A DNA stretch of 64,000 nucleotides, from IMG/VR virus record IMGVR_UViG_2872728642_000001, positions 1 through 64,000 of that record, one strand, 5' to 3'. This document shows positions 31,733-59,916 of the stretch, one piece after another. This DNA comes from a virus. Taxonomy: Duplodnaviria > Caudoviricetes. Below the pieces are notes generated by a model. It was not told the DNA's origin and did not search any database. It saw only the letters and a program-made list of their open reading frames with translations. The position numbers were made by a program, and so were the translations under genes. Each line of letters starts with the position of its first letter. Within the stretch, counting starts at the first letter, position 1.

Positions 31733-32701
31733 CTACTCCAGTAGCGACGCCACCACCTGAGAGGCGTCCTTCTCCAGCCGATCCCGGCTGTGCAGATATA
31801 TCTCCGTCGTGGACACGTCGGCGTGGTTGAGGTCGAGCTGGATCTGCCGCATCGCCACGCCGGCCTCCTGCGCCAGCGACGCATAGGTGTGCCTGCACGA
31901 GTGCGGCCCCACCTTCGACGTGATGCCCGCCTGCATGGCGATGCGCCGCACCAGCTCGAACGCCTTCGACCTGCTCCAGCTCTGGCCGGTCGAGGTCGCG
32001 AACAGCGGACCCGTCAGGTCCTGCAGCTCGATCCCTTCGCGGCGCGCCCGCTCAGCGAGGTAGATGTCCAGCGTGTGCGTCGTCTCCACCGGCAGACGTC
32101 GGGTGATCGTGTCGCCGCCCTTCACCGTGATGCGCAGCGTCCGGTACCCGCGGGCGAACCCGAGGTCGTCGATCTGCGCGTTGATTGCCTCGGAGATGCG
32201 GATCCCGGTCTGCAGCAGCAGCCGGATCAGCGCCGCGGTGCGCAGCCGTTCCCGGCCGTGGTCGGCGTCGGCCGCCCGGAGGAAATCCTGCGCCTCTCCC
32301 TTGGTGAGCGCGACCGTCTCGGAGTGCTTGCGCGGGATCTTCGGCCGCCGCGTCTTCTTGAACCGGTTGGCGTCGAGGGCTTCGGTCTCGTGCAGGTACT
32401 CGTACCAGGACGACACCGACGACAGCACCTGAGCGACCGTCTTCGGCTTTGGCGGCCGGCGGGCCGTCTCCTGGTACCAGCGGGAGAACACGTCGCCGTG
32501 CGGCTTGCGTGCCTCCAGCGGGTCGAGGCCGGTCTCCGCGCAGAACTGGAACCAGCGCCGGATGTTCCGCTCGTACGCTTCGCGGGTGTGCGGCGAGTCA
32601 TACGACCACAGCCACGCCCGGGTCAGGTCGAGGATGATCGGCGGGAGGTCGAGCGGGAGCGCGAGGTCGCCGCGCGGCGCCTGGACCAGCTCGCCGGTCA
32701 T
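31733..32701 (-). CDS. Tyrosine recombinase (Xer/integrase family)
   Basis: TGIRISE (R), VKGG (K), PHSCRH (HxxR), LNH...TTEIY (H, Y); N-terminal SAM-like domain. Confidence 0.92.
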   Translation of the reverse strand: MTGELVQAPRGDLALPLDLPPIILDLTRAWLWSYDSPHTREAYERNIRRWFQFCAETGLDPLEARKPHGDVFSRWYQETARRPPKPKTVAQVLSSVSSWYEYLHETEALDANRFKKTRRPKIPRKHSETVALTKGEAQDFLRAADADHGRERLRTAALIRLLLQTGIRISEAINAQIDDLGFARGYRTLRITVKGGDTITRRLPVETTHTLDIYLAERARREGIELQDLTGPLFATSTGQSWSRSKAFELVRRIAMQAGITSKVGPHSCRHTYASLAQEAGVAMRQIQLDLNHADVSTTEIYLHSRDRLEKDASQVVASLLE

Positions 32702-32982
32702 CCCTCACCGCCGAAGTGCTCGCACGCCTCTTCGACGCTCGCGCGGATCGACAGCTTGGCGCATACCAGCGACAGGATCGCGTCGAGGTCGTCCGCCGTG
32801 TACTCGGGATGCTCGCGGGCCTGGCGGATCACCGCGCTGAGGACAGCCGCGGTGATGGACGCCGAGCGCAGGTCGATGCCCTCGTACTGGGCGATGATGT
32901 CGCTCAGCCGCTCGGAGGTGTGCTCGCGGCGGGCGTGCTCGGGCTCGTCCTGGCGGAAGAGGTCGGAGTAGTCGATGCTCAC
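32698..32982 (-). CDS. Hypothetical, coupled to the recombinase
   Basis: ATGA overlaps at both ends. Confidence 0.6.
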   Translation of the reverse strand: MSIDYSDLFRQDEPEHARREHTSERLSDIIAQYEGIDLRSASITAAVLSAVIRQAREHPEYTADDLDAILSLVCAKLSIRASVEEACEHFGGEG

Positions 32983-33218
32983 CGAGTACCGCCATGCGAG
33001 AGTTCGTCGAGGAGCGCCCGCAGAGTTGGGTTGCCGACGGCGAGCGCTTCCAGCTCGGGACGAGCGTGCGCGTACAGCTCGGGGAGGAGCGGGTCGCGGG
33101 ACTGCAGGGCGGCGGCGACTCCTTCGCCGGTCGCGTCGGGCCAGCGGAACCGGACACGAGCGATCAGGGTGTCGAACGCGGCGGCCGGGTGGAGCCGGTC
33201 ACTGCTGGGGTTGCTCAT
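32979..33218 (-). CDS. Hypothetical, first gene of the recombinase operon
   Basis: AAAGGTG RBS; ATGA overlap. Confidence 0.6.
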   Translation of the reverse strand: MSNPSSDRLHPAAAFDTLIARVRFRWPDATGEGVAAALQSRDPLLPELYAHARPELEALAVGNPTLRALLDELSHGGTR

Positions 33219-33269
33219 GAGAGCACCTTTCACGAGGGATGTGGATCACTCGTGACGGTACCACGCAGA

Positions 33270-33297
33270 GCGGAACATAACGTGAATTATGTTCCCA
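33270..33297. other. dif-like site-specific recombination site (11-6-11)
   Basis: GCGGAACATAA-CGTGAA-TTATGTTCCCA; 9-bp perfect inverted arms around a 6-bp spacer. Confidence 0.7.
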
Positions 33298-33433
33298 TCT
33301 CAGCGATCTTGGCCGCACCGTCAGACCGTAATGCGATCTCACCGAAGCCGGGACCCGTCCCGCCAGGAGCCACGAAGATAGGCGCATGGTCTTTTGGTTT
33401 GGGCATACCCGGAGTTGGCGTGGCGCTGCAGGA

Positions 33434-47639: not shown

Positions 47640-48059
47640 TCAGATGAAGTAGTCGGGCTTGAGCGGGGTGTACGGGTCCTCGACCTCCTCGCCGTGCCAG
47701 GCGTTGGCGAGGCGGACGAGGACGACCCACGCGGCGTCGTGGACAGTGCGGGCCAGCGGCGTTCCGAGACGAGCGGCTTCGGACAGGTTCTGGTGCACGT
47801 CGCGGATCCGCTCCAGGCGCTCCCGCTGCTCGTCGAGCTGGTGACGGATGTTGGCGTAGTCCTCGCGAACGGTAGGTTCGGGTATGTACTCGACGAGCAG
47901 CCGGAACGCTTTGCAGAGCAGGCAGTTGCGGCGGTCTTGGCACGTTCCTGCGTGGTGCGCGATCTCGGCGAAAGTGGTGGCACGCCGCTCACGCTCGCGC
48001 TTGTCTCGGGTGAGTCGGTCAGCGCGGAGTGCCGCACGCTGGTCGTTGGTCAGGCGCAT
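47640..48059 (-). CDS. Hypothetical with a H..C..C..C motif
   Basis: TGATG coupling. Confidence 0.6.
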   Translation of the reverse strand: MRLTNDQRAALRADRLTRDKRERERRATTFAEIAHHAGTCQDRRNCLLCKAFRLLVEYIPEPTVREDYANIRHQLDEQRERLERIRDVHQNLSEAARLGTPLARTVHDAAWVVLVRLANAWHGEEVEDPYTPLKPDYFI

Positions 48060-49771
48060 CACTGGCCGCCGTCCGGGGTGACTTCTCCGTCGCTGAGCTT
48101 CTGAAGGAAGGCAGCGAAGTCAGCGTTTGATGCCCCACCAACTGGCGTCTCTATGGCCTGCTCGAACGCGGCGGGCAACTGCTGGTTGGTGCCGCCGAGG
48201 TCGGACCACACGGCGGCGATGCGCTGCTGCAGGTCCTTGCGGCGGGCGGCGGCCTGCTGCATGAGCAGCTTGACCCCGTCGTTCACCTGGGCGGCGTTGA
48301 GCTCCTTCGTCGAGGTGACGGTGACGCCCATGTGCTCGGTGATCCAGGCGAATCGAGCTTCGTCGTTCTTCGCGGCCGACCCCTTGCCGGTGTGGCCCGT
48401 AACTCCTGCCTCGCCGAACCACACGCCGAGGTCGCGCAGCGCCTTGGCGGTGGGCTTCGGCTGCTCCTCGTCCTCGACGACCACCGCGTCCACGATGTCG
48501 TCGCCGTCGTCGGCCGGCGCCGCGGTGTTCTGCGCGCGGGCGGCCTCGAGGAGCGCTTCGGCGCGTTCGGACGCCTTGCGGGGTTCGTCCGCGATCGGAC
48601 CTGCGGCGGGCTGGCCGAGCTGGTCGGCGAACTGCTGGAGCTGCTGCAGGGTCGCGTTCTTCATGGTGGTGCCGGTGCGGTCGCGGAACGCGGTGTGGAG
48701 CTGGCTCGTCGTTCCCGCCCACGCGGTCATGATGTGCTGGCGGATCCGGTCCGCTTCGGGGTCACTCGCCGCCGGCGGCGCGTCCGAGGCTGGCGCCGGG
48801 CTGTGCGGAGGGTCCTCGCGCGGAGCATTGCGCTCGTCCGGCTGTGCAGCGGCCGAGGCGGGTTGTCCCTGTGGGGCGTTCTTGTCCGGCGGCGGGGGGA
48901 AGGTGGCGACGCGGGCCTTGGCCGCGGCCTCGACTTCCTCTCCTCGTCCCTGCCAGGCGGGGTCGAGCTTGGAGGTCCTCCAGACGGCCACGACCGCATC
49001 TCGGTCAGTGGCGGCCTCGATCATCGCAAGGTAGTCGGTCGCGGGCGCGGCCTCGATCGCCCGCTGACCGCCACCACCGCGGCCCAGCTCGGCGCGGCGC
49101 GCGACCTCGCCCGACATCAGCTCGTCGAAGCCGATACCCTCGATCGTCAGGCCGGGCACCATGTACGTGGTCGCCTTGACCACGTTGTCCTTCGGGTCGA
49201 GGAACGAGCCGGTGCGCTCGGCCACGTACAGCCAGGCGTCCACGTACGTCCCCGCGTGGGCCAGGAACTCGGCGGCGTTGGGCAGCTCGGCTGCGGCGTT
49301 GCCGCCCTTGCTGTCCAGCCGCCACAGGCCCAGGCTGGGCACTTCCTTGAGGAAGACACCGAGTCGGGTGTGGGGCTTGCACGGCCGCCTCTTGAGTTCG
49401 ACGTCCGCCCCGCACAGGCACGGGCCGACGAACGGAGCCTGCATCGCGACGCCAGTGCAGCGGCGGATGCACAGCTTGCCGTCCCAGAGCTCCATGTTCT
49501 GGCTCAGGCCGTTGGGCGGGACGATGACGGGGATGCGCTGCGCGTTGGTGATGACCTCGAACTGCGGTCCCTGCGGCGACTTCCATGGCTTGACCTCGCC
49601 GCCGTACTTCTCGGCGACGCCCCGGATCATGTCCTCGGACGGCGACGTGAACCGGAACGTGTCGATCTTGCTGGGATACTCCTTGCCGTTCCGGCTGATC
49701 TTCTTGATGCCGAGGCGGATCCGGCCGTCCTGCCAGTGGCGGCGCTGCAGTACGGAGGGGTCGATGGGCAT
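48059..49771 (-). CDS. phiC31 gp3-like (recombination-directionality-factor-like) protein with a long C-terminal tail
   Basis: GRIRLG, FRFTS, GG..KPW, CIRRC, C.C, CKP.TRL.V.L, G.W.L.SKG.NAA.EL. Confidence 0.7.
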   Translation of the reverse strand: MPIDPSVLQRRHWQDGRIRLGIKKISRNGKEYPSKIDTFRFTSPSEDMIRGVAEKYGGEVKPWKSPQGPQFEVITNAQRIPVIVPPNGLSQNMELWDGKLCIRRCTGVAMQAPFVGPCLCGADVELKRRPCKPHTRLGVFLKEVPSLGLWRLDSKGGNAAAELPNAAEFLAHAGTYVDAWLYVAERTGSFLDPKDNVVKATTYMVPGLTIEGIGFDELMSGEVARRAELGRGGGGQRAIEAAPATDYLAMIEAATDRDAVVAVWRTSKLDPAWQGRGEEVEAAAKARVATFPPPPDKNAPQGQPASAAAQPDERNAPREDPPHSPAPASDAPPAASDPEADRIRQHIMTAWAGTTSQLHTAFRDRTGTTMKNATLQQLQQFADQLGQPAAGPIADEPRKASERAEALLEAARAQNTAAPADDGDDIVDAVVVEDEEQPKPTAKALRDLGVWFGEAGVTGHTGKGSAAKNDEARFAWITEHMGVTVTSTKELNAAQVNDGVKLLMQQAAARRKDLQQRIAAVWSDLGGTNQQLPAAFEQAIETPVGGASNADFAAFLQKLSDGEVTPDGGQ

Positions 49772-59382: not shown

Positions 59383-59916
59383 ATGTCGCACACCCCGGAG
59401 CCGTCGCAGGACTCGCACCTCGCCCTGTTCGATGACCTCACCACCGAGCAGCAGCAAGAAGCGGGGCCGCAATCAACACGCCGATCTGGGTCACGGCGGG
59501 TTCGAGCAGTCCGATGGACCGGCCTCGCCCCCACTAGCATCTACCTGTACCAGCACCTCGACGACCGCCTCACCACGGCTCTTGAAGAAGACGGTCGGGG
59601 TCCGCAAGAAGCTTGGGAGCTGGCGATCAACGCGTACTGCGACGCGCTGCAGCCGCCCATCAAGACCGAGTTTCCTGAACCGATCAAGAAGGCCGACCTC
59701 GCGCTGCCGCGCGACCCCAGCCAGATGCCCGGCACACCTCGCGCATACCCCGTCGCGCCCCTTGCCACGGTCCGGCTCAAGCGGAACACGAGGGCCAGGC
59801 TCGCCGCCGCGTGCAGACAGGAAGCGATGGGCGGAATGGCCGTCCTCAACGACGCCATGGAGGCATACCTCGACGAGCGCGACCTGGTCAATGTGGACGA
59901 GGACGACTCCGAGTAA
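59383..59916 (+). CDS. Putative tandem ribbon-helix-helix DNA-binding protein
   Basis: Two beta-helix-helix units (TSIYL...DRL..A...AINAY; TVRL...ARL..A...AMEAY). Confidence 0.5.
   Translation: MSHTPEPSQDSHLALFDDLTTEQQQEAGPQSTRRSGSRRVRAVRWTGLAPTSIYLYQHLDDRLTTALEEDGRGPQEAWELAINAYCDALQPPIKTEFPEPIKKADLALPRDPSQMPGTPRAYPVAPLATVRLKRNTRARLAAACRQEAMGGMAVLNDAMEAYLDERDLVNVDEDDSE

Follow-up and report, generated by a model that had tools for sequence, protein, structure and literature searches.

A Xer-type tyrosine recombinase with an adjacent dif-like site in a Nonomuraea-group prophage: a probable multimer-resolution module

Several tyrosine recombinases are known to lie beside their own target sites. 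In the Cre/loxP system of phage P1, a single phage-encoded recombinase lies next to its site, which occurs once per genome and has symmetric arms and an asymmetric centre. XerS/difSL and XerH/difH are chromosomal, FtsK-dependent systems at the replication terminus, in which a two-domain recombinase of Xer type is linked to its own dif-like site (PMC5357621, PMC2731167). Large plasmids also carry a recombinase beside its site, just as XerS and XerH are found beside their dif sites (PMC5357621), and circular plasmid-prophages usually encode Xer-like recombinases that are thought to resolve dimers (PMC8026635). For the Streptomyces plasmid SCP2*, resolution of plasmid multimers has been attributed to the tyrosine recombinase MrpA with its site mrpS (Warth et al. 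2011, as cited in PMC3218068). Here, we describe a locus of this kind in a 64,000-nucleotide stretch of a Caudoviricetes record (IMG/VR IMGVR_UViG_2872728642_000001), hereafter the window. A dif-like inverted repeat lies upstream of an operon that ends in a tyrosine recombinase gene. We consider it highly probable, from sequence comparison, that this repeat is the target of the adjacent recombinase. With less confidence, we favour the interpretation that the pair is a self-contained module with one recombinase, comparable to Cre/loxP or XerS/difSL, and has a role in multimer resolution. Single-recombinase dif/lox-like modules of phages and plasmids are already known as a kind, and a specialist would not be very surprised by this one.

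The two features that define the locus are as follows (window coordinates).

33272-33295, no strand assigned: candidate recombination site, GGAACATAA / CGTGAA / TTATGTTCC; unique, not expected by chance, arms conserved
31733-32701, minus strand: Xer-type tyrosine recombinase, 322 amino acids (aa), assigned from its domains and catalytic residues

The site is 24 bp long with a 9-6-9 layout, in which the arms are exact reverse complements of each other at nine of nine bases and the 6-bp centre is non-palindromic. The initial annotation had reported it as a symmetric dif-like site in a 28-bp string that includes the outer bases (33270-33297), and this description was borne out. With up to three mismatches allowed, the site pattern matched once in the window and not at all in 100 dinucleotide shuffles. 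The 13.77-Mb assembly contained the exact site once, and at least 15 of the 18 arm bases were matched nowhere else in it. This ruled out a second copy, intact or degenerate, that could serve as a partner in inversion or excision or as a pseudo-attB, and the lack of a partner fits resolution rather than inversion, excision or integration. A telomere-resolvase target was also ruled out because the centre of the site is not palindromic. The inner motif CATAA-N6-TTATG occurred six times genome-wide, and two of these six occurrences adjoined the two paralogous recombinase genes; its chance expectation per 4-kb locus is ~0.002 (from 6 in 13.8 Mb). DNA nearly identical to this stretch was not found in the phage collection. 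Among sequencing runs, matches were confined to soil metagenomes that shared 4-5% of the sampled words, and no RNA data set was listed. Conserved GATCGC (33303-33308, upstream) and GTGATC (33242-33247, downstream) blocks lay on either side of the site and promoter in every relative, at unequal distances, and are possible methylation or accessory motifs.

The product of the recombinase gene contains an N-terminal SAM-like core-binding domain (PF02899, E 1e-6, residues 36-104) and a Phage_integrase catalytic domain (PF00589, E 3.5e-24, residues 132-307). In a PDB sequence search, it aligned over its full length with E. coli XerD (1a0p, E 4e-21) and more weakly with XerA, XerH, and IntI4, whereas Cre was absent among the matches at E 1e-5. 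Residues R168, K194, H267, R270, H293, and Y302 align with R148, K172, H244, R247, H270, and Y279 of XerD, and these six catalytic residues were invariant in 15 homologues (45-89% identity). All eight orthologues compared were intact (969 nt), with ratios of nonsynonymous to synonymous substitution rates of 0.16-0.47, indicating purifying selection. Judged by its two domains and the lack of an arm-binding domain, the protein is a recombinase of Xer type, and its conserved residues make it look like an active enzyme. The host has XerC and XerD candidates of its own elsewhere in the genome.

The site was kept upstream of the gene in all seven loci fetched from other genomes (recombinases 72-94% identical), and its arms were unchanged in six of them; the exception was the Planotetraspora locus L011 (72-73%), with the arms GGGACATAA / TTATGTCAC. 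It was also present in further loci at 71%, 61%, and 56% identity. Read in the direction of the gene, the centres were TTCACG, TTCAGC, TTCACC, TTCAGG, TTACCG, TCCAAG, and TCCAGG, and the flanks varied likewise. The centre was never palindromic in any relative seen, and its first base was T in the phage-clade loci and in the megaplasmid paralogue described below, with another base in several more distant sites. A non-palindromic centre that starts with T indicates a fixed polarity of the site in the phage-clade loci and the paralogue.

The outer arm bases varied by recombinase clade, with CATAA/TTATG constant. The arm type was GGAACATAA at 61-100% recombinase identity (the Planotetraspora variant aside), TGGTCATAA at 53-56%, and GTACnCCATAA at 38-43%. 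The last group includes a paralogue in the same genome, encoded on the 854-kb megaplasmid C1 (38% identical, C1:385427-386551; L017 4389-5551), whose site, GTACCCCCATAA-TCCTTC-TTATGGTGTAC (C1:385395-385420), ends 7 nt before the start codon. Homologues at 33-37% identity on plasmids of Kocuria (the 4.4-kb, five-gene pKPAL3), Rothia (p1), Micromonospora, Verrucosispora, and Streptomyces had ATAA-N6-TTAT inverted repeats of their own, with 10 of 11 arm bases complementary, at or upstream of the gene or operon. Overall, the site preceded the gene or its operon in the window, in all phage-clade loci examined (at least 53% identity), at the C1 paralogue, and in five of the six plasmid homologues examined. 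Apart from the recombinase, no gene was shared by all loci with a site, and other phage neighbours were limited to the phage clade. Because the arms co-vary with the recombinase, which is the only shared gene, and because the chance expectation is so low, the site appears tied to the recombinase and not to another DNA-binding protein.

In the mechanism that we propose, two recombinase monomers would occupy the two identical arms of one site, as expected from the enzyme family. Two copies of the site would then synapse, with cleavage and strand exchange at the borders of the 6-bp centre, the asymmetry of which would give the site its polarity. With one site per genome copy, the reaction could take place only when two copies are joined in a single molecule, as they are in dimers or multimers of circular phage DNA, and its products would be monomers. 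In the strain studied, the substrates of the module would be the circular DNA forms that replicate once the phage has infected or excised. The module would be of greatest importance in the ~95-kb plasmid-prophage relatives partitioned by ParA, which are described below. A self-encoded dimer-resolution module with possible autoregulation had been put forward in the initial annotation, and it is still the best reading of a site that is conserved with a single adjacent recombinase and overlaps a predicted -35 region.

The locus resembles Cre/loxP in that one phage tyrosine recombinase is found beside a single symmetric site with an asymmetric centre. The likeness extends to a phage of ~95 kb, to relatives that are apparently ParA-partitioned plasmids, and to the proposed monomerization of circular copies. 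It differs in that loxP is 13-8-13, whereas the present site has a 9-6-9 layout, contains a CATAA/TTATG core of dif type, and overlaps a predicted promoter, and in that this phage copy is integrated and without ParA. XerS/difSL and XerH/difH share with it the two-domain Xer-type recombinase linked to its own dif-like site. In contrast to these chromosomal, terminus-located systems, the present pair is found on phages and plasmids, in this genome 2.66 Mb from the host dif; its centre is 6 bp and not 11 bp, and its best structural-database match is XerD and not XerH. XerCD acting at dif, cer, and psi is similar in its 11-6-11 layout, its ATAA-N6-TTATGT core, and the full-length alignment of our recombinase with XerD, but it uses two paralogues on two different arms instead of one recombinase on symmetric arms. 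Accessory sequences like those at cer and psi were not identified at the phage site. MrpA/mrpS, as described, comprises a plasmid-borne actinobacterial tyrosine recombinase that acts in multimer resolution, the role proposed here, and SCP2 was not among the plasmid matches to the recombinase at E 1e-20. Integrative mobile elements exploiting Xer (IMEX), such as CTXphi and TLCphi, also carry a dif-like sequence; however, they encode no recombinase and insert themselves at the dif of the host, whereas the present element encodes its own recombinase, is integrated at glnA, and keeps its site intact.

This integration was established from the genomic context. The genome comprises four contigs, namely a 12.78-Mb chromosome contig, the 854-kb megaplasmid, and two small contigs. 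The window corresponds to C2:6471381-6535380. Protein relatives belong to Nonomuraea and further Streptosporangiaceae; the host chromosome is Nonomuraea-like. The window lies inside an island of low GC content (0.66-0.69 compared with 0.72) that has a 17-bp direct repeat, CTACGACGTGTGACGGC, at its two ends, C2:6451196-6451212 (window -20185) and C2:6549586-6549602 (window 78206). The left copy forms the last codons of the glutamine synthetase gene (glnA 3' end), and the right copy lies just past the gene for a tyrosine integrase (471 aa) whose central and N-terminal domains are of lambda type. In a second lysogen, G045, a related phage occupies this end of glnA as well, and its 81% identical integrase is again followed by the core repeat. 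Therefore, the element is a 98.4-kb prophage that was integrated by a separate enzyme, and the recombinase studied here is interior to it. An empty glnA site was sought in relatives, but the right flank was not conserved and a matching 45-bp stretch proved to be a dispersed repeat. This stretch (window 79033-79077, L016:2413-2457), immediately to the right of the prophage, occurs at 96-100% identity in unrelated places of many Nonomuraea genomes, with one more copy in the present genome (C2:7343025).

The initial annotation had also suggested that the phage might use the site as its attP and integrate at the host dif. A host dif candidate, TTGCTCGATAA-TGAACA-TTATGTCAAGT, was found at C2:3847460-3847487 (locus L018), 6.33 Mb or about half of the contig from dnaA (C2:10.176 Mb). 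It matches the Frankia alni dif, as quoted in PMC3025954, at 23 of 28 bases, including the entire right arm TTATGTCAAGT. Its two arms are not alike, as a XerC/XerD pair would lead one to expect, while those of the phage site are symmetric, and the two sites have only ATAA and TTATGT in common. The phage site, at 6.505 Mb of C2, is not at the terminus. Its position at 50.9% of C2 had raised the idea that it could itself be the host dif. This was ruled out by the positions of dnaA (10.18 Mb) and of the canonical actinobacterial dif (3.85 Mb) and by the rRNA operon at the end of C2, which indicates that the contig is not a closed circle with its first base at oriC. A gene for a 377-aa tyrosine recombinase is present ~6 kb from the host dif (C2:3840666-3841136).

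Relatives of the prophage were of two forms. In G045, G241, and G244, the integrase lies ~45 kb from the recombinase, as in the present element. Contig G093:C75 (94,716 bp) has phage-like GC content throughout and is colinear with the prophage from the tail to the early genes; its first 38 bases are repeated at its end, within a repetitive gene, and the contig is likely circular. Contig G159:C48 (95,476 bp) has the prophage map in circularly permuted order, crosses the prophage-end junction, and breaks in the replication-initiator region. Host genes and a homologue of the 471-aa integrase were absent from both contigs. On the strand opposite the early genes, both encode a ribbon-helix-helix protein, a ParA ATPase (AAA_31, E ~1e-26), and a third protein (L066:4251-6777; L059:711-2989). 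By these features, the two contigs look like plasmid-prophages. The prophage in the studied strain retains the first gene of this cassette only (59383-59916, plus strand, 177 aa), and ParA was not found in the 98.4-kb island. One lineage therefore exists in an integrase form and a ParA form, the latter apparently a plasmid, and both forms keep the recombinase and the site. This looks like a swap of integrase and partition cassettes within a single phage lineage, parallel to the integrase/parABS alternative of cluster A mycobacteriophages (compare PMC7157519). A further contig, G240:C1 (102,852 bp; L088, L089), was rejected as a relative because it lacks any member of this recombinase family. 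Its ParA gene is split over both ends, which indicates a circular replicon, and the encoded ParA is 71% identical to that of an episome-like relative.

The remaining features of the operon are listed below.

33255-33263, minus strand: predicted extended -10 element TGgTACCGT, 8 nt downstream of the site, identified by conservation
33226-33231, minus strand: ribosome-binding site GAAAGG before the g1 ATG, from the locus alignment and the sequence
32979-33218, minus strand: g1, 79 aa, ATG start, variable cargo with 2 database clusters only
32698-32982, minus strand: g2, 94 aa, variable cargo with 2 database clusters only, among relatives only in L007
31559-31723, minus strand: Cys-rich protein, 54 aa, with its own ribosome-binding site GGAGGG, 9 nt past the recombinase stop

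The description of a three-gene coupled operon ending in the recombinase, about 50 bp below the site, proved accurate: the g1 ATG is 53 nt from the end of the site, and the junctions between g1, g2, and the recombinase gene overlap (GTGA and ATGA), consistent with translational coupling. In an alignment of eight loci, the invariant columns were the arms, the upstream GATCGC block, and a TG-n-TAC-nn-T motif beginning 8-9 nt past the site, followed by a ribosome-binding site of the GAAAGG type and a conserved ATGAGC start. From its conservation, TG-n-TAC-nn-T is predicted to be an extended -10 element, in which case the site would cover about -24 to -47, including the -35 region. With this overlap, the recombinase probably represses its own operon: when bound over the -35 region, it would block the promoter, and the genes between promoter and recombinase would be interchangeable cargo.

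In agreement with the latter, the stretch between promoter and recombinase in close relatives contained a 67-aa gene, an 83-aa gene, a gene pair, three genes, or nothing recognizable. A relative of g1 (49% identity) was present upstream of the recombinase in G093, and g1 and g2 each had one other cluster in a collection of 5.8 billion proteins. On this evidence, g1 and g2 are mosaic, interchangeable cargo. The earlier proposal that they are accessory or directionality factors did not hold, as relatives with 85-94% identical recombinases have other genes or none in their place and both genes are near-orphans. Integron-like capture of cassettes at the site was ruled out, since the variable segment, which no second site flanks, does not begin at the site but is preceded by the conserved promoter, the ribosome-binding site, and the ATGAGC start. 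The 54-aa Cys-rich gene was often, not always, retained beside the recombinase in the phage clade (80% identity in G093), and its product had no PHROG match.

Several observations weigh against a multimer-resolution module. Binding, cleavage, strand exchange, resolution, and repression are all deduced from comparison. The promoter rests on conservation, as a scan for promoters and terminators with an E. coli-type consensus found nothing. In two loci, the site is downstream of the gene, by 14 nt in one and 2.5 kb in the other. For the clade at 48-50% identity, searches for inverted repeats, core motifs, and shared k-mers revealed no CATAA-type site within 6 kb, and a dif-like inverted repeat was likewise absent near the gene in the cultured phage homologues (~32% identity) of Maja and Auxilium (Arthrobacter) and Jablanski (Gordonia). 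The episomal state of both plasmid-like relatives is read from contig structure alone, and the present copy and most database relatives are integrated chromosomal prophages. In a family that is mostly integrated, plasmid maintenance cannot be the sole reason for keeping the module, which must also bring a benefit when the phage is not a plasmid lysogen, perhaps by acting on replicating circles or by end-joining of terminally redundant DNA. The 48-50% clade (L042-L048, from G044, G200, G162, G167, G120, G050, and G115) has a different gene context, with a variable upstream segment of ~1.1 kb.

End-joining is the basis of one alternative, in which the main task of the recombinase would be cyclization: it would join two sites in the terminal redundancy of injected headful DNA, as Cre/loxP can do for P1, and dimer resolution would be secondary. 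Such a role would explain why integrated prophages retain the module. The large terminase matches Terminase_6N and Terminase_3, and a minor head protein is SPP1 gp7/Mu F-like, both usual in headful packagers; moreover, the module is 6.3 kb from the presumed small terminase gene. However, the site lies upstream of the terminase genes, so that the first headful packaged in the late-gene direction would contain no duplicated site, and this geometry gives no special favour to end-joining. Two copies of the site would be present only in a fraction of virions equal to the redundancy. The plasmid and megaplasmid homologues, too, carry the same module without any packaging. We regard cyclization as the main role as unlikely. 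Another alternative holds that the palindrome is an operator only, bound by some other factor or by a recombinase-fold repressor, for which MrpR of SPbeta is a precedent (PMC10516654). The overlap with the -35 region of a conserved promoter would suit this, and constant arms with a free spacer are also what a dimeric regulator would require. MrpR, in contrast to the present enzyme with its invariant catalytic residues, is without such residues (PMC10516654). The inner CATAA/TTATG with a 6-bp centre is a hallmark of Xer sites, recombinase and arms change together across unrelated contexts that share no other gene, and the single site per replicon leaves no regulon. An operator function alone is therefore quite improbable.

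Use of the site for integration, as an attP for this recombinase or for host XerCD at the host dif or another attB (in the manner of an IMEX or as a secondary system), is the least credible of the alternatives. The core does resemble dif, and homologues in cultured actinobacteriophages are annotated as integrases. Nevertheless, the site is intact within an element whose ends are the 17-bp glnA repeats beside the other integrase, and the second lysogen is alike; the attP proposal was thus not upheld. Hybrid half-sites, which this reading would need at the phage ends, were not seen in four integrated relatives. The remote host dif with its different XerC/XerD-type arms, and the lack of any similar sequence in the host genome, also speak against this use. 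In addition, the cultured phages encode a second integrase near the short "Y-int", a serine enzyme in Maja (L096) and a tyrosine enzyme in Jablanski (L097) and Auxilium (L098). This fits the short Xer-like enzyme not being their integrase, and it may have been misannotated as such.

A multimer-resolution module accordingly remains our preferred interpretation. It provides a likely function for a recombinase that databases label only "tyrosine-type recombinase/integrase" or "XerD", and it implies that a second recombinase found in an actinobacterial prophage is not necessarily an integrase. The locus also draws attention to a lineage of large Nonomuraea-group phages, able to carry a lanthipeptide cluster, that is both integrated and, apparently, plasmid. 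Finally, several recombinase/site pairs with different arms are candidate orthogonal Cre/lox-like tools for high-GC actinomycetes. Taken together, these elements suggest a broader picture, which we offer tentatively and would not expect to hold in full. In this picture, a ~95-kb Streptosporangiaceae lineage would swap integrase and ParA cassettes, and with them integrated and plasmid lysogeny, while always keeping the lox-like module. The invariant arms and fast-changing centres might serve as a compatibility code, by which co-resident elements would not be fused by each other's recombinase. The occupied site might double as a self-limiting promoter, active in lysogeny, for interchangeable cargo, and the co-varying recombinase/arm pairs might be natural orthogonal lox-like tools of use in high-GC actinomycetes.

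The surroundings of the module are those of a phage genome, and the statement in the initial annotation that phage genes lie on both sides of it was correct. The upstream flank is an early region with genes for an O-like replication initiator, an HTH_58 protein, and a MerR-like protein. The downstream flank is a late region encoding a ParB-like protein, an ATPase-acyltransferase, a possible small terminase, the large terminase, the portal, the minor head protein, and the major capsid protein. The prophage also encodes a 570-aa protein (window 48059-49771, minus strand) with an N-terminal Gp3-like recombination-directionality-factor domain (PF18897, E 1.4e-32); Gp3-like directionality factors are known from serine-integrase phages, whereas the integrase here is a tyrosine recombinase. 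A class I lanthipeptide set inside the prophage (C2:6463188-6471052, window -8192 to -328) comprises a 1033-aa LanB dehydratase, a 368-aa LanC cyclase, and a 423-aa PCMT-type methyltransferase. This set is absent from the two episome-like relatives and present in the integrated relative in G045.

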